A DNA stretch of 63,974 bases, counting the filler, from Catajapyx aquilonaris (taxonomy: Eukaryota), in NCBI GenBank assembly GCA_000934665.2. It is 3 parts of 3 records of this genome, joined end to end, with 100 filler letters (N's around TTAATTAATTAA, not from the genome) between each part and the next. Parts side by side here need not be neighbours in the genome. Positions count along the whole stretch, not along the records: positions 1 to 21,613 come from JYFJ02006046.1; 2 more parts are not named here. One strand, 5' to 3'. Shown piece by piece: positions 1-63,321 of the stretch (position 1 is the stretch's first letter; every line of letters starts with the position of its first letter). The position numbers and the translations under genes are program-made. The notes beneath the pieces are model-generated. The model ran no database searches. It worked only from the letters and a program-made list of their open reading frames with translations, and had not been told where the DNA came from.

Positions 1-1735
1 AAGGGTTCAATTGGATGTGGGTTTCACATATATTTTTTAAAAAAAAATCGAAGACCATGACTGGGCACCCTCCGTCTGGATTGAAATGGAACCAGCCTTC
101 TATACCTAAAATTGGGTAATGGGGAAAACTCATAATAAATACCGGAGCAAAGAAACTATGGAAAACGAAAATGTTGGTGGGGGAGTGGGGGATGGTGGCG
201 TGGGATCGAAAAATGTGGGGGGAATCAAGGTAGAAGGGATTTGGAGCTGGCAGAGCGGCTCCCGGCAAATGCGCGCGGCCAAAATTCGGATGTTACTGTC
301 GCTCATATCTCGGAAACGGCTGGACGTTGCGAGCTAACACTTTCACCACTGTGTCTATCGCACATGAATGACCCCTCACGCCAGTTTCAACCAAATCGGA
401 GGTTCCCGACCCTGACCGTTCCGTTGTTAGTGTCTTTTTCCCAAGTTTTGTGATTTTCTGTCAGTTTATCATTGTTATTCGGTTTTTGCTCTGGTTTGTG
501 ACCTTATTTAGGCCATTAAAATTTGTCTCTCTCTCTTTGATTTTCTGTAACATTATCCTCCATACATGCACAAAAGTAAAATTTTTGTGCCTGTTTAAGG
601 TTTTTTCCTGCCTAAAATTCTTGGCTTTACTCATAAGCCATTCAAGGTAAACAGATGCCCTTGCTCCCTCCTCCTGCCCTCTGCCTCTAATCTAAAACTC
701 TTCCACCCACTTTACCAACATTTGCTTCATCTCTGGCCTTTTTCTAATCTTGAACTGTAAATCTTGCTCTGAATAATCAAATGGTGTCTGCTGTATTCAG
801 ACTAATCTTCACAGGCCAAGATTTTGTCCGATTTTCTGTAAAAGTGTCAATGTCGAACATTGCTTGCAAATCTTTCACAAAATATATTCTTCCATTGAGG
901 TTGGGTGTGTTTCTTGTGCGATTGTGCCTCTGACATGTGGCCGAATAACTGCTCTGAGCTAGACAGTTCTGCAGCTGGTATGCTGCAGATGTTTTTGCGC
1001 ATTTTTGTTGACCACTCATTGTGAGGTATCCCTTGCTAATATGAACAGTCCTTTCAGCATAATGCCAACTGGACACCGCATGCGGCCGGTTCAATGCTGG
1101 CCTCAGCTCAACAAATGCAATGACAGTGAGGTTGTTGTGTAGGGGTGGATGCTAGAACTAATTTGACGCTGTCTTTCAGGTGGAAGGCTGACTGCATCAT
1201 ATGCATAAGATACGTAGTTTCTGACATGTCATACATGGAGCACATCCAGCACTACTGGTGTCTGATATGTTGCTTGACACCTGCCTCTCTTCACTTCTGC
1301 AAGTGCAGTGGTCTGCCTGGAGGCATCACCTAACAAGATTGGCAAATCAAGTGAGCATGATTCGAGTAGACTTTTTCACATTGCCAAGGAAATTCCAACT
1401 GGACAACAATGACATATAGAGTGTTGTCAGTCTCATTTCTTGTTGCCAAGTATCTCAAGGATTCCCGGCCATAGACTTGACCTTGGCTGAGAGAGTGAAC
1501 CCGGAAAACCGGAAATGGCCGGTGCCCGGAAGTTGACAATGAAACCCGTTTAGGGTCCACTGAATATGAATCTGAAAACCGTTTGTTGCTATCTCATGCA
1601 GTTTAGGCCCTAGTACCTGTCCACGGACAGACTGATGGACAGACGAGGTGTTCTATAAGGCTTTTAGACTTTTTCCAATCGAAAAGAAGTCTTATAGAAT
1701 GGCTCTGTCCATCTGTCTGTGTGTGTGTCTGTCTA

Positions 1736-1908
1736 TGTTGTGTATTGGGGTTGGTAAGAAGGTACTCAGGATGTTGAACTAACAGGTGTATTGTACTATG
1801 TACAAGTGAGAGCTGGGAACAGACCAACTGCTCGGTCTGTTCCTTACATAAGACAACAAGTCACCAGTTGTCTGGCAACTAGTTATACAATAATGACAGG
1901 ACACAACA
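1736..1908 (-). mobile_element. 3' LTR of a Ty3/Gypsy-like retrotransposon (173 bp)
   Basis: Bounded by perfect 8-bp inverted termini TGTTGTGT...ACACAACA. On the minus strand it directly follows a polypurine tract GGGGGGAGGAG (1909-1919), downstream of the end of the pol-like reading frame. No matching 5' LTR seen in the window. Confidence 0.75.
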
Positions 1909-2811
1909 CTCCTCCCCCCAGAACAAAAGGTCAGGAAAACATCTTCCACAAGTTGAACTAGATGTAGTCCTGCAGGTGCTGTGGTCGTCTGATGACCCTT
2001 CCACTCCGGTGTAGCTCTGGAAACGGATGTGTCTCCTCTGCTGATTCTGCCACGGAGTCTGTGGTGTAGTCCTGGATTTCTTCTGCGATGCGGCCCTCTG
2101 CACAACTCGGCTGTTCTTCCGGAAACTGAGACCCATGGAGATCCTCTGGTCGTAGGACGTCCGCTGCTCCTCGCACTGCTGAGTCCGCCCTCTGGACTGC
2201 TTCAGGAGGCCCTTGACGGACATCCGATGTACCCCATACTGGTGTATCACCGTCCTTCTTCCCCAATCTTTAGAGCAGCTGGTCCACATGTCGTCTCCAT
2301 TGTTGTCTTCCTGCAATTTCCACCAGGTAGGATCTGGGACCTGCTGGAGAAATAACCCTCCCTTTGGCCCAATTCCCCCCAGCTGCCTTGTCCTGTGCGT
2401 ACATGAGGGCACCAGCCTCGAATTCACGGGCCTGCCCCCCTTCCCCTATGGCAGCTTGGTGGTCCATGGTCATCTGTCCCGAGTCCATGTCCTTCAGCAC
2501 TTCAGTCAGGTCATTCTTCTTCTTCTCCGTCTTCTTCTTGCTCTTCTCCTTCTGATCTTGCTGATTTAAGGATTCTTCACCATCAGCCGCCAGTGGCTGT
2601 TCGTCAGCTTTCTTCTCACCTATGGTCTTCTCTGGGAAAACTTCCTCTGGTGTGGTCTTCTTCTTGGAAGTGGACTTCTTCGGAGACTGGTCCTCTGGAA
2701 TGCTTGAAAAGCTGACCGTAACTGGGGAAAAGCCTGAAAGAGCTGGCTTTGCCAACACTTGACTACCCCTGACTTGCTCCTGTGCGTCGTCAACTCCATT
2801 CTGCTTTCCCT

Positions 2812-3000
2812 TCTCCTCATGTGCCTGTAGCTGTCCCTTCCAGTCCTCCATGTTGGCCGATAACTCCTGCAGGGCAGAAGTAAGCTGACTGTTGTTGTCC
2901 TTCAGTGCCTGTAGCCCAACCTCCCATTTCTTCATAATGGCTGAGCTTTGTGCCAGTGCAAGCTTTAGACTCATTCTCATGCCTGAACTGAGCTTCCACA
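2812..3000 (-). pseudogene. homer: Captured fragment of a Homer-family gene (C-terminal coiled coil) inside the LTR element
   Basis: Translates as VEAQFRHENE / frameshift / LKLALAQSSAIMKKWEVGLQALKDNNSQLTSALQELSANMEDWKGQLQAHEEK. This matches the recalled arthropod Homer coiled coil (…ENERLKLALAQSSANAKKWE.EL.TLKNNN.RLTSALQESTANV.EWK.QL…). Confidence 0.8.
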
Positions 3001-3564
3001 GAGTGTGGACGGAACTCTCCTCGTGGCTGCTGTCCACCCTCTCTCCTCAACCTTGGTCTAACTTTAGGGCCTGCTTCTGTTGCCCTAGGAGCCACCACTG
3101 TAGGTGAGCCCTCTATTTTGATCCCAAGGGTTGGAACCAGTCGCGGGCCAACACCCATGGTCCACCAGATTTTGCCACCACTAATGGGAGTTGATGTTGC
3201 TGTCCTTTGTAGACAACTTCCACTTTTCAACAGCCCGCAACCTTAACTGATGATGTGACCATGTCCATATTGGAAATCCAGTGGTCGTAGCTCATACTCC
3301 TGATTTGACCACCTCTTCTTGAAGTACGTGTAATCCATGACGCTGCAGGCCGCTCCGGAGTCGACTTTCCTGCGACCATTAAATTCACCTTCATTGGTGC
3401 AGGATGTATTGCCACAGCATCCACATTGAAGATAGTGACAGTATTAACTGCCTCTTCCAACAGTTGGACTGACTTGCTTGTCACTTTTCCCGAGTCTAGC
3501 CCATAGCCCTTACCCTAAAAGGGCTCCGCCCTAGCATGGGGTTGAATAAATAAAATAAAATTAA

Positions 3565-3800
3565 AATAAAACCTCCAGGGAGACTGCACATGCACATACC
3601 CATTGTCTGACATTGCACCTGCACCCGTGTCGCCTCCCCAAAAAATCCCCATCCCTACCTCATGTCCTTTCTTCCCTGCACGGAGTTTGAAGAAAATGCG
3701 AAAATTGAATGGAAAAATATGGTGGTGTTTCACCCCCCTAAGAGGGCCCCTGGCCCTTACACAGGGTAATACAAAAATAATAATAATAATAATAAAATAT
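3565..3800 (+). mobile_element. Dispersed retroposon 3' end (SINE/LINE tail), copy 1
   Basis: AACCTCCAGGGA(G/C)ACTGCACATG...GGAAAAA(TA)TGGTGGTGTT(T/C)CACCCCCCTAA... followed by an A/TAA-rich tail. Similar to 56175-56380, and its 3' end to 52602-52680. Confidence 0.55.
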
Positions 3801-3864
3801 TTGTTTTCAGGTCAACTTAAAATACAGCAGGCTTGCACCAAGGATTAGTAATGAACATAATATA

Positions 3865-4296
3865 CAGGGTGAATCCGATCTTCACCGACACCCATGTACC
3901 AATGGCATAATGGGCACCAGGGGATCAATTATTATTAATGTAGACTGTAGAGGAGTCATTATGTCTGGGCAGCCTCATTACTGAGATAATTGATCATTTG
4001 CGATTTAGCAATTGGGCCTAAGAGTGATTGTCACAGATTGTCACAAATTGTCACAGATCACATGCGACATGCAGTACACATGCGACATGCTAGTAGCTAA
4101 ATGGAAAAGCTGCTATTTTCACGAGTGATGCGATGTCGGGGCTGAAGGTTTCCATACCTCCCAGGAAACTTTGTACTACGTGTTTGAAGGCAATTATCTC
4201 CGTAATGAGGTGGCCGAGACATGATGACTCCTCTACATTAATTGATCCCCTGGTGCCCATTATGCCGGTATGTCGGTGGAGATCGGATTCACCCTG
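3865..4296. mobile_element. Tc1/mariner-type MITE with long inverted arms
   Basis: TA-CAGGGTGAATCCGATCT...AGATCGGATTCACCCTG termini. Inner inverted repeat TGTAGAGGAGTCATTATGTCTGGGCAGCCTCATTACTGAGATAATTG. Core shared with 46583-47001. Confidence 0.8.
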
Positions 4297-4984
4297 AATA
4301 TCGTCAGGAGCCCCAATCATTGGAATGACACAAGACAATCACTTTCTCTCCAGCCAACAATTTAGACAATGCAGCCCCAGTCAAGATGGTTTGGATTGCA
4401 TGCAGATGAGACCCATTTTGTTGAAGACTTGTGTACCTTTTAATCCTGCAGTGGGCATTTTTGACATGGAACTGACTATGCCAGCTCATGCTCTGCAGTT
4501 TGTTGAGGACTTGGATGTTTCACATAGTAGTGTGACAAGGTGGAAATAAAGAGTCTAGGAGCCGGGAGCTGACAACTACTGCTTAATTTAGCTTGCACTT
4601 AATCCAGAAGTCACGGGCGCTTGGTGTCATGATTGACCAGGTGTAGATTCGGCTTGGCTTTGCCACACGGTGCTGCTGTGTCTCACTGCGCTGGATCAAG
4701 TCGGGCTGGGAATGTGACTGCCACCATAGAGTCCATAGTAGTAACATATGCGGGTTTACTCAGACTCCTTGGGTGGATTGGGAAGACAAGAGTTTAAACT
4801 ACGGCTCAGTTAGATAGGCTAGCGGTTTAAACTGGGGTGCTTGCAAAGACGAGGTTTAGCCCAATGTTTAGCCTGGAGACAGGTTTAAACCGCAGCTCAA
4901 TTAGATACCGGTTTAAACTGGCCACGTCTTTGCAATCCACCCGTCCTCTCTCCAATCCATTTCCAACCCTCACACTATTCACCC

Positions 4985-5100
4985 CATAGTGTTGTGGGCA
5001 CAAAGTGTACTGAGAAATGGGGCAGCCAATGTACACTTGGGTTGGGTCAAGGCACATGTGGGTGTCTTGGTTATGGTAATGAGGAAGCAAAGACTGCCAC
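4985..5100 (+). mobile_element. LINE RNase H remnant
   Basis: Translates as NVHLGWVKAHVGV..G(Y)GNEEAK, the WVK(A/G)H.G..GNE.AD motif of non-LTR RNase H; frameshifted. Confidence 0.55.
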
Positions 5101-6660
5101 CTTGCTTTCAGGGATGCCATTTCTTTGCGGAGTCCTTCACCCAGATCCACCCCCAGGTGAGAGTGGCCACTCTGGTTGCCTGGCAGGAAGGATGAGATCG
5201 CTGCATGGGCAAGTGGTATCATGGGTTTCTTCCCACCATATCCCAGTAGCAGCATATTCACGGACATGTCGCTAGAATCATCTCCAGTCATGGTCCTTTT
5301 TGGGCCTATCTCTTCCGCTTTGGATTGCTGGATGCCGAACACGAGGGCACTGCTCAATGTTCTTGCCGACATGGGATTCAAGATGCTGCACATGTCCTCT
5401 GGATCTGCACCATACCGCAAGTGCTGCCTGCCTGTCATCACCTTTGACGTGTGGTGGTGTCTAAGGGTCTTAGTTGCTCTTGCTCCTAACCAGCCCTGAC
5501 AACTTTTGTTCATCTTGAATTTAATTCGTTTTGCCTAAGAGTCAATGAATTTCAAGTCCAGCTTAATGCCTGAGATCAGTGAGATGTGAATGGGGCTAGA
5601 ACTAGTAAGAGAAGGCAAAGATCAATGGAAGCAAAAGAGCAGAAGATGAGACCTGGGTATTTGTATGAATAAATCTGAAGCTGGAGGGGGAGGACAAAGA
5701 GGATGGTAGTAAGACAGAGGATGATACACTGACGGTCCCTAATAGCTGCATGTATGATTCTGGAGCTTGATGAAGAAGTAGCATGAGATGGAAGAAGAAG
5801 GCCTGCGACATTATATTGGTCTCTGATGTACTGGTAGCATGACTAGGGTGGCAGATACTAGTGGCCCTGGTGTCATGGCGCAGACTGCTGGTGACATGAA
5901 ATGTTTCTGACGAGTTCATGGCCTTGGTGTAATGATTTTTGTTGTGATTAATAATGAATAGCGGGGCATACATTGGGCTGTAGGACCTGAATGGTTGGGT
6001 CAGCTCAAAGGGGACTGGGGATCGAAGGGGCTGCCTCTGGCTGGGTGCAGGGCGTTTGGGACTCACATCTCATAAGGAACTTGTTCTGGTGTATAACATT
6101 TTTTTGCGTTGTTGTTATTCCACAGAGTGCTTGTTGGACCTAGTTTTATGAGCATCATCTGATAAAACTATGCCAAAATCTTCACACAGATGACGGATGC
6201 GTGTCAATATGTGTGGCAGGAGTGATTTTAAATTTCGCGCTCATCCGCCATATTACACCTGGCTACATCGCTGCCACGTTTCATCCCACACTTTTAATGA
6301 ACTTTTACAAGCTTATTATCAGTGGAACATGATATTCAAAATTGTCATTTTAAAGGACAACCAAATACAGTATAAGTTCAACAAATGTCCAATGTGAGAG
6401 GTGTAAAAGTTATGCTGTCAACCCTGCAGCTCCGGAAAGCTTCCGTTTGTTTAATGCTCGCGTGGCCGGATAAAAATTTCGAGGGAGCCGTATCCAAACC
6501 GATCCGAGAAAGGGAAGAAGATGGGGATGTTTGAAGGTAATTAGGCCAGCTCCTGGAGCTCATATCTTGTGGATTGATATGGGGGAAGTCCTGGGAGGTA
6601 TAATGACTAAGAAACGATGTTGTAAGGTAAGGGCGATTGGATTATGCTGAAAGGAACAAG

Positions 6661-8399
6661 CAGGGCCCTGCAGAGGGGGGGGCAGCTGGGTACACTTGCC
6701 CCGGGCCTCAGTACGGCCAGGGGGCCCCGCCAGGGGCCCCAGGCCAGAATTATTCAACCAGCCGACAGAAACTTACTGGGAAAAATACCCAATCCCAATG
6801 GCGTCTTAACATATTAGGGCCGAATCATTTCTGGAGGCCCCATTTCAATAGTGACTTATAATTCACAAATTTTGGCAATAATAATAATAACAAGCCAATT
6901 TGGGGCCCCTATTTAGGTTGGGGACTCGGGGCCCTATAATTCAATACCGGCTCTTAAATGGCAATTTTTTCCAATAGAAATTCGACAATTTGGGGCCCCC
7001 TGTTTCAGTCGGGGGCTATTGGACCCTCTCCATATGCAAGGATTCGATCAGACATTCAGACTTGTCCAAACACTCACTAATTCTCTCACCCTGAAAATGC
7101 AACCACTCAAGATGTGGGGAAAAGGAAAAGGGCTTGCCTACATAGAGTACAGTTCTATTTAAAGGGGAACCTAGCCGAAATTTTGAAGGCCTTAAAATGA
7201 GCCCTTGGCGAATATTGTTTTTGGTTAGTAAAAGTGGTCAAAACCCAATGAACATAATTACGTACATCAAAAGACGGAGGAAGACGAGGAGAATGCAACA
7301 ATAGAATTAGCTTTACTCAAATATTTAACCAGAAAACCTTGTGTCATTTCATCGGTCACATATCTCATAATTTGGGCCCCCCAAAATTAGTGATGAATCT
7401 GCAAAACATCCCTCATCTTTTACCTGGTTTCAAATTGAACATAACCTTAAACCTTAGAGCTTATTGTGGTCAAAACTCATGTCACGAAATATGACTGAAG
7501 TTACGCAAACACATCACTAATAATAATTATTATCGGAGTCCAAGTTCTTGGACATGTCACTGAGCATGTGATGAATATAGAACGAATGGCACACGTTTTT
7601 CTGCTTACATTTTTGAGGAGAATGTGTTAATTTCATAGTTCCATTTTCTAGTCTTTTTACTTCATTTGTTTACTGGGTTTTGACCATCCAATTCCACTAA
7701 CCGAAAATGTTCTTCCAAAAAAGGCCCCAATTTAGCAATTTCCCAAATTCGCGAATTTATCCCTCCTCACGGTATTGAGCAATATGGATGAAACTTGATA
7801 TTTAGCATTATGGAATGGTTGTGCACTTCTGTGTTTATTTCCACCAAAATCCGAGAGGGTCAAGCAATATTTCGTCCCACTTGATTCGGAATGACCCCAA
7901 GATTTTTTCGAGGACTTTGGTTCTTTGACAGCCACAATTAATGTTGAAGACAAAATTCAGACAGAGTGATAGGTCATTATGAGTTACCACTCTTACCAGT
8001 GACCTAAGGAAGATACAAATGGCGATTAATTTCCAAGAACAAAAATGTTGATTTTTGCTACATATTGTAATTATTATAAATGCCTCCTGTCGGGCATAAA
8101 AACCCCTAATTAATTAAGATACTATGTGTGCAAGAGGAGCCATGACATTGCAATAGTAGGGCCTCGGTTCCCCAACACCCTATTTGTGTGCATTTATACT
8201 GTAGCCCTTTTCCTCTTTTCCACATCTCGACTGGCTGCATTTCCAGGGGGTGCATATTGTTCTGTGCTTGTGCAAGTGAAATCAGTTGGCTACCTACTGG
8301 CGCATCTCATTGACTGACTTTGTACATTTTATGTCATTATAAGAAGGGGCCTCTAACATGATCCTGCCCCGGGCCTCAGACAAGCTCTGCAGGGCCCTG
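6661..8399. mobile_element. Non-autonomous hAT DNA transposon
   Basis: 15-bp TIRs CAGGGCCCTGCAGAG / CTCTGCAGGGCCCTG, exact 8-bp target-site duplication GGAACAAG (6653-6660 and 8400-8407), subterminal GGGGCCC/TGCCCCGGGCCTCAG repeats. Internal inverted repeat at ~7220-7255 / 7667-7708. Confidence 0.9.
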
Positions 8400-21613: not shown

Positions 21614-21713
21614 NNNNNNNNNNNNNNNNNNNNNNNNNNNNNNNNNNNNNNNNNNNNTTAATTAATTAANNNNNNNNNNNNNNNNNNNNNNNNNNNNNNN
21701 NNNNNNNNNNNNN
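21614..21713. other. Artificial contig-concatenation spacer
   Basis: 44 N + TTAATTAATTAA (stops in all six frames) + 44 N = 100 bp. Confidence 0.95.
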
Positions 21714-30195: not shown

Positions 30196-30362
30196 GTGAG
30201 TTACACTGATAGCTGAGGGAATATATCTTCTTACATAATAAAGCAGAAAGTTTGTCTGCATGTCCGGGCTGCCTAACTCACTTTGGGACTACTAAAACTT
30301 TGTTGATGGAGGAAAATGTCTGAAAACTGCTGCACTTGTTAAATATATGGAAACTGTTGCAG

Positions 30363-31169
30363 GTGTGAAGGATGACTTGAACAAGGACGACAAGCGGTCC
30401 CCTAAAGTTCCGTCAACGTCGATGGCTCAACCACCAATGTCAGTGCCATCAGGGTCGTCGGGTCACTCCTCAAGAGTCAATGGTGATTCGCGTCGTATGC
30501 ATGCGGCAAGGGGCGTCCCTGCCAGTTTCGGATATGTGAAGAGACCCACTAGCGCCGGGCCAGTTTGTAAGAATGGGGGCGGCCCCGGGGCGAACGGCCC
30601 AACCCCAAAGAGCAGAGAAAATCCGGAGGAGATGCGGACAGCCCAGGTGTCCGGTGTTCCCAGAGTGGACACCGCTAAAGGTGAACGGAGCTTGGAAAGA
30701 CCCAGGACGAAAGTGAAGGTCAGCGGGGGCACCCAGACCACATCTGACCTTCTCGGCCCCGGGGCGGCCCACCATCCGACGCCTCACCACTCGGAACCGG
30801 ACTACTCCAGACACGGCTACCCACCGCAGCAGAACGCTCCTCCTCAGTACAAGTCCTACTCTCTGACTGCCCCGAGCGCGTCCCAACTGTCCCAGAACGT
30901 GCGCGACCGTCTCCTGGGGTCACAGAGCCTACCCAAGTCTTCCTCTGCTGCCGGGGCCGACTATGCCGGGTTCTACGCCGGGTTCCACCACCAACACCCT
31001 GGCGGTGGGTACTCCCGAGAGAGGAGCCCAAGGCTGCCCAAACCCACCGACGGGTCACTCAGCGACACTGCGTACTCCAACTACGCCGAGCTGCACGGGT
31101 ACAACCGAAGCAGTCCGTACGCATGGGTCAGACACAGCCCCAGTTATGCAGCCGGAGCATCTGCAGGAG
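30363..31169 (+). CDS. sick: Neuron navigator large exon
   Basis: Open 807-bp exon with ASFGYVKRP, KVKVSGGTQT, LGSQSLPK and DGSLSDT motifs typical of sickie/NAV; donor G|gtacgt. Confidence 0.9.
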
Positions 31170-31528
31170 GTACGTCTGGTTCGTTGTTTTTGTAATAAGC
31201 ATTCTGATTGGTCAGCCGCACATTTTTGTTACCGCGACGCTTCCTATTGGCCCAGTTGTGCGCCTGCGCAATGGTGTGGAGGCAGCGCCTCTGGTGAGTG
31301 AGTGGGTGGGGGAGTATTAAAATCCTTCGTTGTTTCACCAAGCCTTCCGATTGGCCTCCGATCTGCTCCTGCAGTCCTGCGCAATGGGAGGAACTATCAA
31401 TTTGCTTGCTGTCGGGCTGAAAATCACATAGCAGTGTAGAGAAGTGATGAGGTCTACATAATCAACCGCTATTCTTAACATATAAAAGACAACGACGGCC
31501 ATATGTATAAACAAAGCGTGTGTTTCAG

Positions 31529-43148: not shown

Positions 43149-43248
43149 NNNNNNNNNNNNNNNNNNNNNNNNNNNNNNNNNNNNNNNNNNNNTTAATTAA
43201 TTAANNNNNNNNNNNNNNNNNNNNNNNNNNNNNNNNNNNNNNNNNNNN
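43149..43248. other. Artificial contig-concatenation spacer
   Basis: 44 N + TTAATTAATTAA + 44 N. Confidence 0.95.
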
Positions 43249-46582: not shown

Positions 46583-47001
46583 CAGGGTGTCAGTGAATTG
46601 ACCAGTCAGACCTGTATCCGTGGCTCAATTGAGACCAGAGGATCATGTTGTAGAGGAGTCATTATGCCTGGGCAGCCTCATTACTGAAATAATTGCCTTT
46701 ATACGACAAGTACGAAGTATCCTGGGAGGTATGGAAACCTTCAGCCCCGAAATCTCATCACAGGTGAAAATAGCAGCTTTTCCATTTGGCTACTAGCATG
46801 TCGCTTGTGTACTGCATGTCGCATGTGATCTGTGACAATCTGTGACAATCACTCTCAGGCCCAATCACAAATGATCAATTATCTCAGTAATGAGGCTGCC
46901 GAGACATAATGACTCCTCTACATAACTTAACATGATTCTCTGGTGTCAATTGAGCCATGGGTAGGCCTACAGGTCTGACTGATCAATTCACGGACACCCT
47001 G
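46583..47001. mobile_element. Tc1/mariner-type MITE related to 3865-4296
   Basis: TA-CAGGGTGTCAGTGAATTGACCAGTCAGACC...GGTCTGACTGATCAATTCACGGACACCCTG; same inner arms and core as the 3865 copy, in opposite orientation. Confidence 0.8.
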
Positions 47002-56174: not shown

Positions 56175-56380
56175 AACCTCCAGGGACACTGCACATGGCC
56201 CAGTTTCAGGCATTGCACCTGTCTCCCCTCCCCAAACATCCCCTTTCCCTTCCATATGTCCTTTCTCCCTTGCTAGTCCGAAGAAAATCAAGAAAACCAA
56301 GATGGAAAAATGGTGGTGTTCCACCCCCCTAAAGGAGCATTGTCTCCCAATGGCGTAAGTAAAATAAAATAAATAAAATA
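56175..56380 (+). mobile_element. Dispersed retroposon 3' end, copy 2
   Basis: Colinear similarity to 3565-3800, ending in an (AAAAT)n tail. Confidence 0.55.
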
Positions 56381-59398: not shown

Positions 59399-60331
59399 TT
59401 ACAGCTGCGTTCCATCTATTGTGGACATCAGCCCGCTGCTTTTCAGGTCCGAAACACCGTCAGCTCTGCTGCTTGTCACCAGACCCTCCTCCTCAACTGT
59501 AAACAATGTGAAATGACATGGGGTTGTCACCCCAAGTCTGTTAGGTGGGTGTTCTGAATCACTCACTATCGGGACTGGGCTCTGTGGAGATTTGTCCTCG
59601 CATGTCGAAGAATGGCAACAGCTACTCGTGCACTGGGATGCTGTGGTGGCACTGCTAGTACTGTCACTTTCCGAGTCGACCGAGGAGACCGAGGGAGTGA
59701 TGGTGCGACAGCAATTTAACTGCAGCCGCTGCACTTGCTCCTCCTTCCGCAAGCGTTCATGCTCCTCTTTCCGCAAGCGCTCATTTTCCTCCATCAACCG
59801 CCTTATCTCCTCCTGGAAAATGCGTATCTTCTCTGCCATGTCTGGGTCCATCCTCATCTCCCCTCGACCCACCTCATCCTCCGAGTCAGTCCCTTCCTGG
59901 TTATGTTGCTGGGCTCTCACCATACGTAGCTGTTTCTCCATCTCATCCACCCTGTCCTCCATCTGAATATATTCTTGGATCAAGTCCGCCTTGCTCATGG
60001 AACTCAACCGCTCCGCATTCACATGGTCATACGTGTTGGAAAACTCCTTCGACTGGAATTCCCTGTTTCGAGGTGAGAAGTAGTGCCAGTAATCCTCCTC
60101 CGACTCAACACTAGTTACCGACACCACCTCTTCGGGGCTGAGTGGCGAGTCCAGCCGGTACGATTTATGCTGTTCCATCAAGAACTGAGTCGTGTTGTCC
60201 GGTGCTCCTTCCCTGTCCGGATGGTACCGTCTTCTTTTCGGTTTACCCCGTCTATTTTTCTTCCTCTTCCGCGGTTCTCCCGACTTAAAACTCCCGCTAC
60301 TTGAGGGCATCGTATTCAGTGCAGCTGACAT
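59399..60331 (-). CDS. Hexim: HEXIM-family P-TEFb regulator, divergent (PDNT instead of PYNT)
   Basis: Basic tract RKRKKNRRGKPKRRR, APDNTTQFLME, acidic region, and cyclin T-binding coiled coil EFQSKEFSNTYDHVNAERLSSMSKADLIQEYIQMEDRV...AEKIRIFQEEIRRLMEENERLRKE. First ATG at 60331; probable 83-bp GT-AG upstream intron 60445-60363. Confidence 0.9.
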   Translation of the reverse strand: MSAALNTMPSSSGSFKSGEPRKRKKNRRGKPKRRRYHPDREGAPDNTTQFLMEQHKSYRLDSPLSPEEVVSVTSVESEEDYWHYFSPRNREFQSKEFSNTYDHVNAERLSSMSKADLIQEYIQMEDRVDEMEKQLRMVRAQQHNQEGTDSEDEVGRGEMRMDPDMAEKIRIFQEEIRRLMEENERLRKEEHERLRKEEQVQRLQLNCCRTITPSVSSVDSESDSTSSATTASQCTSSCCHSSTCEDKSPQSPVPIVSDSEHPPNRLGVTTPCHFTLFTVEEEGLVTSSRADGVSDLKSSGLMSTIDGTQL

Positions 60332-63321
60332 ACCCCCAATCTCCGCCAATGGCACTCCCGATCTGAAATGACGTACTTGGGTGAGTGGGAGGGTGGTAGG
60401 GTGGGAGAGAGTGCGCGAGAGGCTGCTAGGTAGCTGCCTGCATACCTGTCAGAACCTACGGTTACAACGTCCCCGCCTGGAATGACCCCAAACGAGGAGC
60501 TGCGACTCCTTTACTTTGCCCACTCACCCCTTTAGCCCTCCGCCAACCAAAGGAAATAGGTCTTTGTTAGCATCACCTTTGCGGCCTGTGGATGTTATGC
60601 ACTCATTTTGACCACAGATGCACAACATTACGTGTTAACAATTTAGAATATGGTTAGAAATCAGAACGAGGCAAGGTTAGGTATCTTCCGGAATCATGCG
60701 GATTGATACATGCAAAATGCTTCCTTTTAACACCGACCTACTGTTTATATGGGGAGGCCAGTTCTCCTCACATGCCAATGAATCACACTTGCGGCGCTGT
60801 AACCAGGGGCAATCTCTTGTACCGTACTCACTGTCAGTAGTGTATATTGTAGTATTGAGCAGTATACTGACGTCGTGACGTGAATTGGCTAGTGAAGCAG
60901 GGCTGTGGTCACACCTAAATAGTTCTATATGCTGATTTTGGGCTTTACGAACAATAAGTGCATAGCAATGTTCTTTCTCAAGAAAGAATGACACGAGTCT
61001 GCATGACGAGATGGCAGCAATTTTTGTGCAATTTTTGTGTTTTGTGCTTGTTTATGTGTTGGCTATCCTGGGCGCTGCCAGGTAACCGGGGTTGTTTATT
61101 TGGCGTTATTCTGGAATCCACAGCACTGTGATCACGGGTCACGGTCGCGGTCCCACGGCCCCAGGGTCCCATGGCCGCACGGTCGGGGTCTTGGGAGGCG
61201 GGCGGGAGTGGGAGGTGCGTTGCGTTGTCTGGTGTATGTGAAAAGGTGTTTATTTGGGGTGATTGGGGGAAGGGGGGCGGATGAGGCAATGGCCACGACC
61301 CGGGCAACACTCCCCCGGGGGGATCATGGCAAAACTGTATAAATAATGCACATTTTCCAACTTTTCAGGGGAAAAATAACATTTTCGTTTGATCTGCTGC
61401 CATCCCGGTTCAAGTGACCCTATCAGCCACCAAATTCTAGTACACTATGCCAGCTGTCTCTAATTGCAACAGGAAAGGGGACCCCAAAGAGCTTAATACT
61501 AGGAAGAGTGGAAAAAACGGTTTCCAAGCGTCGCCACTTTTTGGCCAGTTGTTTAGTCAACGTGTTTGGCTGTCGGCCACTACGCGGCGCCACCGTCGAG
61601 TGCTGTCGTATTGAATTTCAATACACTGTGTTGATTTAATATCAAGAGGCACATAATTAAGAGTTATAAATCTAAAATCTGACCAATATGAGGTCGTATG
61701 GGGTTAAGGAACTTATATTGGACCCGAAACTGATATTCTGCGCAGCTGGCCACCCTGCACGTAACAATACAAATAATCACCTCGTTGCTTAGAAATCACG
61801 TTCGAATTTCGAAATTGAACAAGTTCCTTTGCCGGCATAGTGTGGCGTAGACGTTCGGGTGCCGCGTGCTACTACTGCTGTTCGCGCACAGGGTCACGGA
61901 TCACATTCTTTTCGTTACCAAAGGGCCCTCCACGGTTCTCGAGTTCACGGGAAGAAGAACAAGCCCGTCCCGCCACGACAAGATGGCAGCGGGGGGTATA
62001 TCTTCCTGTCATCAGTGTCATCAAGCTCTTGGTGTCATGTGACCATGTTCAGCATCATTTATATCAGTGTGTACCTTGGTGTGTATTGTATAGAGCAGAG
62101 TGTGGGATTGTAGTGGAAATCAATAAACTTCTGGCAAATAATATTTGCTTTTCGTGATGGTTTTTTATTCACAGGTCTTCTGCAACGTGTTTTGTCGGCA
62201 ATTTGACGGGAGTATACTAGTACTTATGACTTATTTCCAACCTCTGGGGCTTTTATTGCCATATTTCCGGCACTGCCTCGATCTACCGTATTGTACAATA
62301 CAGTATCGAGTTTGGCTGTCGATCGCCAGGTGGCAGGTCAGTCGATTGGAGACACGGTTGCTATGTTACCAGCTGTTTTTTCCACTCTTCCTAGTATTAA
62401 GCTCTTTGGGGGACCCGTTCTAACATGTTGGGCCGTTGATTTTATGTTTTTTTTGTTCTTGTACGGTCGGGAACAGGTACGAATCGTACGATCATCGCGG
62501 CTTGAAAAATTAGACCTAATGCAGGCTTAGAAAAAAAAGGCGTGATATAGCGAGGGGGAATAAATACTGCCGGGTGCGCAAGGAGGGGGCATTTTCTGGA
62601 GGATTCCGGGTCCCTTGTTCATCTGTAGGATTTATTTGCATATCGTCTTTCGCATAATTTTTTTTTGCAATTAATTGATGGGAGATTCCACGACAGAGCA
62701 TGCGAAATAAAACTCAATGTATGTTCACCCCCAATTTCTTGATCTCAATCAAATTTGGTAGGATAATTTATCGTCCATAAGGATAATAATATAAATCATT
62801 TTAAAAATTTAAACGTTTTAAATTTTAAGGGTCATTAGGGCACGTGCAATCAGTGGCTGATCCAGAAGTTTTTTCTGAGGGGGGGAGGGGGACAAGAGTA
62901 TAGTTGGGGGGTGGGCGTCTTCGGGCCCACATTTGTCGCTGACAGTGGTGCACGTAATATCTCCTGGGGAGGGGTGCAGCCGTGGAGGGCCCGCCGCAGG
63001 CGATAATTTTTCGGTTCAAGGTCACAACCCTTCCTCGCCACCCCCAATTTGGGGCATAACGGGGCCCAAATCGGAAAAGAAGAGGGTTTTTGCGAGTTTC
63101 TCCCCCGTTTTTTTTTCTTCTTATTTTTTTCCGTTTTTATCCCTCTGGGGAGCCCACCAAGAAGTAGAAGTGGTTTAACCCGATGAGTTGCTTCCGTATA
63201 GTCACCTTTTTGTTAAAGGGAGAGGCTTTTGGGTAAGGGTGGGAGAATGCAGTGGCCCTGTTGGCCACATTGTGTTATTGTTGCGTAACAACAAGAATAG
63301 TGTTCAGTCTAGAATAAAAGG

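Follow-up and report, generated by a model that had tools for sequence, protein, structure and literature searches.

How could a piece of a synaptic scaffold gene come to lie inside an LTR retrotransposon in the place of its enzymes, and does it serve any function there? The question is raised by a locus of Catajapyx aquilonaris (assembly GCA_000934665.2), which we analysed within a 63,974-nucleotide stretch of DNA, here called the window, made of three parts joined by filler; the element lies in the first part, JYFJ02006046.1. A sequence-only reading of this DNA had proposed that a retrotransposon transduced Homer mRNA by template switching and thereby acquired a chimeric open reading frame. 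We consider it probable, at about 0.8, that the element belongs to a non-autonomous Ty3/Gypsy-type family originating from LTR-mediated retroposition, and that the copy in the window is decayed and truncated at its 5' end.

Organization of the element

The element lies on the minus strand. Its features, from the LTR towards the truncated end, are as follows.

1736..1908, minus strand: 3' LTR of 173 bp, with TG...CA ends and an 8-bp terminal inverted repeat
1909..1919, minus strand: polypurine tract (PPT) of 11 nt, abutting the LTR
1958..2437, minus strand: integrase C-terminal tail and end of pol, with an internal stop at 2272-2270; the similarity may start up to about 2494
2495..2809, minus strand: Lys/Glu-rich open stretch, in frame with Homer and the integrase tail, common to other copies
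2810..3002, minus strand: Homer fragment of about 60 residues from the start of the C-terminal coiled-coil region, with a frameshift near 2969
3003..3108, minus strand: linker from the protease end to Homer, possibly the variable hinge of the host Homer; similarity not significant
3109..3481, minus strand: degenerate aspartic protease and gag-protease linker, with DSGA at 3362-3351, frameshifts and a stop
2270..3046, minus strand: stop-free frame over Homer, Lys/Glu stretch and integrase tail, 258 codons; 236 aa from the ATG at 2980

The order of protease, non-retroelement insert, integrase tail, PPT and LTR, as the sequence-only reading had given it, was confirmed by profile matches and by the ends of the LTR and PPT, and the 173-bp LTR that it claimed was found at 1736-1908. 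Downstream (3') of the Homer insert, the minus strand runs through the Lys/Glu-rich stretch into the integrase C-terminal tail, the PPT and the LTR. Upstream lies a degenerate protease remnant of the Gypsy type (about 3407-3125). With profiles built from four Gypsy gag-pol loci (L081-L084), the protease matched at 3253-3125 (E 2e-6) and the integrase tail at 2437-2237 (E 7e-10), and no other domain match in the 642 six-frame chunks of the window came below E 1. The E value of the integrase tail is partly circular because the reference loci had been chosen by an integrase-tail motif scan; the motif played no part in the protease match. Neither remnant had a direct match in Pfam or PDB, and no relative of the integrase tail was found in the protein database (50 candidates) or in viral contigs. 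An ESM search gave a lead, and a lead only, from the tail to MLVIN_C (score 0.88); its single-sequence structure model was poor (pLDDT 57).

The four reference loci share with the window the C-terminal motif of the protease, the integrase tail, and a PPT followed by an LTR starting with TGT, the PPT-then-TGT arrangement following pol in L081, L083 and L084. Unlike the window, they have kept reverse transcriptase (RT), RNase H and the integrase core; in L082-L084 (four ORFs), Pfam identifies protease, RVT_1, RNase H and integrase in the Gypsy order. They are relatives and not the parent of the element because protein identity in the matched pieces is about 28-48%. These loci lie in metagenome-assembled genomes (MAGs) of bacterial symbionts and in a viral-contig collection, most likely as host contamination, and in L081 and L083 the end of pol precedes the start of gag, an order seen when copies are circular or in tandem.

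The interval separating the matched pieces lacks about 814 codons of pol (residues 209-1022 of L082 have no counterpart) and has about 690 nt in their place. RT, RNase H, the integrase core (rve) and gag had no match anywhere in the 64-kb window. By this comparison, the internal ORF of the retrotransposon is replaced, not interrupted, by host sequence. A TG...CA LTR after a PPT is a Ty3/Gypsy trait, as is the homology of the protease and of the integrase tail to Gypsy pol; since RT, RNase H and the integrase core are absent, and the RT-RH-IN order is seen in the relatives, we file the element as a defective Ty3/Gypsy derivative. The window contains one LTR; the 5' LTR and gag are missing, and the element is truncated on the protease side at about 3482. 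With one LTR and a cut end, the window copy yielded no paired LTRs, gag, PBS or target-site duplication. A full element of this layout would measure about 2,700 nt.

Identity of the host fragment

Positions 3000-2812 of the insert, translated across one frameshift, had been read as the Homer coiled coil, and this identification was borne out. Residues 20-95 of the frame matched three of 21 candidates at 69-70% identity, with significant E values of 1e-11 to 4e-10; all three proteins carry a WH1/EVH1 domain (PF00568), and one is named Homer. With 120 Homers as queries, tblastn placed the main match at 2968-2810 on the minus strand, and SVEAQFRHENE is encoded at 3002-2970 in a different frame. 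The frameshift near 2969 is thus real because the Homer match is distributed over these two frames. The widest extent found by BLASTN against Homer loci was 2808 to 3012. In Pfam and PDB, pieces of the window had no Homer match; the best Pfam match, to TBCA_PH (E 2e-4), fell short of the cut-off and was taken as coiled-coil noise.

The fragment lies in the sense of pol, is truncated at both ends and has no poly(A). By its position in the protein, we take it to be Homer CC1, presumably not the end that forms the tetramer. Compared with an arthropod Homer, the window has no EVH1 domain (no EVH1/WH1 match was found in it), no distal coiled coil, one frameshift and only about 60 residues; as judged from these differences, it is not a Homer gene. 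Against P0002 (Homer homolog 2-like), 43 of 59 residues in the Homer block are identical, and 14 residues of the block never occur in 119 Homers. The best-scoring Homers are those of scorpion, spider and tick, and an Arg in the fragment is shared with 40 of the 119 Homers, the named ones among which are from chelicerates.

Evidence for a spliced template

The intron test judged the intron position from the Homer loci of other animals, of which 80 were fetched and 78 had the anchor. A phase-2 intron lies in the first Ser of ALAQ-S-S-AN in 39 of the 78 anchored loci; the other 39 are contiguous. Thirty-three of the contiguous loci are probably transcripts because they stay open downstream. Six loci without the intron (L027, L030, L033-35 and L046) were called genomic, two by a downstream stop and four by loss of similarity at the position of the next intron of the others. 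Two unanchored Homer loci, L010 and L011, also have no ALAQ-S-S intron and have another one a few codons later, after KKWEV; both are close to the ant sequence P0113. Counting genomic Homer loci, 39 of 47 carry the intron, corresponding to 27 of 31 distinct genes, with four genes lacking it. Among five genomic loci with the chelicerate-type QLRYEN motif, it is present in three and absent in two, which limits the force of the test, the fragment being closest to the Homers of chelicerates.

At the intron position (2946/2945) the window is contiguous, and the AG-C serine codon is kept. A spliced mRNA template is favoured because the fragment has no intron where 39 of the 47 genomic loci have one; the homology to the loci of other animals favours a Homer fragment that spans an exon junction. 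We consider it unlikely that the capture took place at the DNA level, from an intron-less Homer gene or an older processed pseudogene made by a LINE, via gap repair or ectopic recombination. Such a source would fit the genomic loci without the intron (the six above and L010-11), as well as blurred junctions and flanks of the Homer match (upstream about 100 nt, downstream about 315 nt) that have no assigned source. However, the intron occupies its position in 27 of the 31 distinct genes, and the clean replacement of pol in sense orientation resembles template-switch products as presented in the cited portion of Tan et al. 2016 (PMC5131818). For the transduction of Homer mRNA by template switching, the capture of a spliced message therefore stands, being supported by the intron test, the sense orientation and the lack of a mis-join, whereas the switching itself we infer from the layout.

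Other copies of the chimera

Logan contigs from four runs of one sample, which may be the assembly's own source, were aligned to positions 1300-4000; contig depth was not used as copy number. Contigs identical to the window (2448-2854 and 2830-3117, 0 differences in all four runs) bridge both ends of the Homer fragment. Diverged contigs carry the same joins: one pair (2980-3198 and 2942-3198) the join of protease to insert, and another (2660-2915 and 2660-2883) that of Homer to the Lys/Glu stretch, with 8.9-10.2% substitutions over the two pairs. Substitutions amount to 10.9% in a diverged contig of the protease part (3178-3481) and 6.5% in one of the integrase tail (2238-2452), so that divergence is at a similar level in the element and insert parts of other copies.

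The hybrid exists in several copies. The chimera is older than the split of these copies because the diverged contigs have the same joins at similar divergence, and it is not the chimeric mis-join at the insert borders of which the sequence-only reading had warned because diverged, read-derived contigs, like the identical ones, bridge both Homer borders. One diverged contig runs on past 3481 with 49 different letters. As another copy's contig diverges from the window there, the right flank is not common to the copies, and the window copy is cut at 3481 while others continue; among the matches listed, the joins are shared in diverged contigs and the right flank is not. In every one of the four runs, a contig connects 2629 to 2820, a variant of the chimera in which 190 nt are absent from the Lys/Glu stretch.

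The chimera probably spread as a non-autonomous family. A single capture, with the extra copies produced by segmental duplication or haplotype divergence rather than by retrotransposition, seems very unlikely to us. A second LTR and a target-site duplication, which would speak for retrotransposition, are not visible, and the high-copy repeat on the LTR side makes flank sharing unreadable there; yet the diverged contig departs at 3481, where the window copy is cut, and a divergence of 9-11% is high for alleles.

Decay and possible function

Does the captured sequence still encode a protein that is of use? The sequence-only reading had described an ORF of 255 aa fusing Homer to the integrase tail. 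The in-frame join holds, since Homer, the Lys/Glu stretch and the integrase tail share one frame for 232 codons, whereas the length needs correction: the open frame at 3046-2270 has 258 codons from stop to stop and yields 236 aa from its first ATG at 2980; the 26 codons at its start are read in a different frame from Homer. The closing in-frame stop (2272-2270) falls inside the integrase tail. With six breaks scattered randomly along the coding span, 13% of trials yielded an open gap matching the observed one in length (P=0.13); the length of the frame is no sign of function because it is within chance. The ORF was found in the protein collection in 0 of 3 versions.

The Homer block was compared over 59 columns. 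Conservation across 119 Homers reaches 95% or more in 44 of them, and 12 of these 44 near-invariant columns are changed in the window. In the 119 real Homers, the same columns show no change in 104, one in 14 and two in one. A single base change would suffice for 11 of the 12 changed residues, and 10-13% neutral change predicts 9-11 changes, against the 12 seen. Most likely, the Homer piece is carried along as a passenger without selection on its protein, and these comparisons do not support a functional use of it.

The protease end seems to continue into the start of Homer in one frame, by a reading of the protease end that we partly assume. The contigs of other copies show gap letters in the intervals that hold the frameshifts of the window copy; given the in-frame joins and these gap letters, some family members may be more open than the window copy. 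Together with the single frame of 232 codons, such features could suggest a functional chimera, either as a coiled-coil peptide that disturbs Homer assembly or as a source of Homer-silencing piRNAs. Precedents for function are found in Pxyfem (PMC9674220), Bs1 (PMC13317346) and the few retrocopies described as being under constraint in the portion of PMC5131818 cited here. We nevertheless regard function as highly improbable: the window departs from the conserved Homer residues at 12 of 44 positions, real Homers at 0-2, the largest open gap is within chance, the window copy has no 5' LTR promoter, the ORF is absent from the protein collection in all three versions, and divergence from the parent gene would weaken small-RNA pairing. 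The dominant-negative peptide suggested in the sequence-only reading is not supported, for the same reasons of decay, chance ORF length and missing 5' LTR. Moreover, dominant-negative Homer is described as a short form with EVH1 and without the coiled coil, and the window piece is the opposite because it has kept the coiled coil and has no EVH1. An assembly error that fused a Homer exon with a retrotransposon can practically be dismissed, in spite of the lack of an identical contig across 3117-3178 among the matches listed and of runs that may be the assembly's source, because identical contigs span the Homer borders in all four runs, diverged contigs carry the same joins, and the decay of the piece and its lack of an intron set it apart from a real exon.

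Proposed origin

The origin by LTR-mediated retroposition builds directly on the layout, the identity of Homer, the intron missing in comparison with homologous genes, the matching arrangement of diverged copies and the decay of the Homer residues. A spliced Homer mRNA might have been co-packaged with the RNA of the element. During reverse transcription, the enzyme would have left the integrase region for foreign RNA, copying the Lys/Glu stretch and then Homer, and would have returned to the element at the protease end. In this way, about 2.4 kb of RT, RNase H and integrase core would have been exchanged for about 0.6-0.7 kb. The chimera would have retained LTRs and the PPT and could have been recopied by enzymes acting in trans, and the window copy would later have lost gag and the 5' LTR. 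Such a course implies that Homer mRNA may have been present in the germ-line cells where the element was active.

The Lys/Glu stretch had 0 matches among 1.84 billion representatives, none usable in the ESM Atlas and none in Pfam. We rejected it as a frameshifted later part of the Homer coiled coil, the score being equalled by 41 and 51 of 100 shuffles. A second captured mRNA would be the simplest guess for its origin, as in the two-gene chimera CG4799_CG11924_r of Drosophila (PMC5131818). For the linker at 3003-3108, the score against the upstream extension of Homer was reached by 45 of 500 shuffles, which is not significant.

Comparison with known LTR-mediated captures

Tan et al. 2016 (PMC5131818), in the portion cited here, present a close parallel: the layout of the window recurs in each of the 15 polymorphic retrocopies of Drosophila and in a case from mosquito. 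As in the window, the internal ORF is partly replaced by a host mRNA truncated at both ends, and the retrocopies have no poly(A), are mostly in sense orientation and spread non-autonomously; two-gene chimeras and copies at multiple sites also occur among them. LTR-mediated retrocopies are found in zebrafish, chicken and mouse as well (PMC5131818). The window differs from the Drosophila retrocopies in age, with copies about 10% apart as opposed to less than 1%, and in its Homer cargo; a further feature of the retrocopies is microsimilarity at the switch points (PMC5131818). In the features tested, namely a replaced ORF, a spliced origin judged by homology, truncation at two ends and no poly(A), the element corresponds to an LTR-mediated retrocopy.

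Pxyfem of Plutella xylostella, proposed to have arisen by LTR-mediated capture, resembles the window as a multi-copy partial cDNA that covers exon junctions and is fused to fragments of LTR-retrotransposon ORFs (PMC9674220). Pxyfem makes RNAs that silence its parent gene (PMC9674220), whereas the chimera in the window is known from DNA. Maize Bs1 is likewise an LTR element with segments of host genes in a chimeric frame; it is reported to be transcribed and translated (PMC13317346), in contrast to the window, in which the captured residues are decayed. The expectation that such events are rarely reported in arthropods thus did not hold, as the mechanism is well described in Drosophila and mosquito (PMC5131818) and in a moth (PMC9674220). 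Our search of open-access text found no report of a Homer retrocopy or pseudogene. The locus extends LTR-mediated capture and amplification to an arthropod beyond fly, mosquito and moth, with a synaptic scaffold gene as the cargo. It would carry greater weight if intact copies were under selection or yielded Homer-silencing small RNAs. As a long shot, a pol-less Gypsy family might still be mobile, with intact members encoding gag, protease, Homer, the Lys/Glu stretch and the integrase tail in one frame; these could make Homer-directed piRNAs or display the Homer coiled coil on a Gag particle, coupling it to the Homer scaffolds of the host.

Surroundings of the element

The element is flanked by high-copy repeats at 1330-1735 and 3570-3740. 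Within the left repeat there is an inverted repeat (1627-1720) with a microsatellite-like end. Another copy of the right repeat, 74% identical, lies at 56175-56332. A palindromic, MITE-like repeat at 3946-4340 has very high contig depth, with a second copy at 46649-46928. Rfam gave no match in positions 1-8000. Identical gap patterns of 44 N, 12 bases and 44 N at 21614-21713 and 43149-43248 are probably an artefact of assembly or masking. On the plus strand, 30296-31192 is an exon-like open frame of 299 codons without a Pfam match, which we take to resemble neuron navigator/sickie proteins. On the minus strand, an unbroken frame of 349 codons at 59402-60448 encodes a HEXIM domain (PF15313, E 1e-19), possibly as a variant or retrocopy, and reads PDNT at what is presumably the usual PYNT motif.
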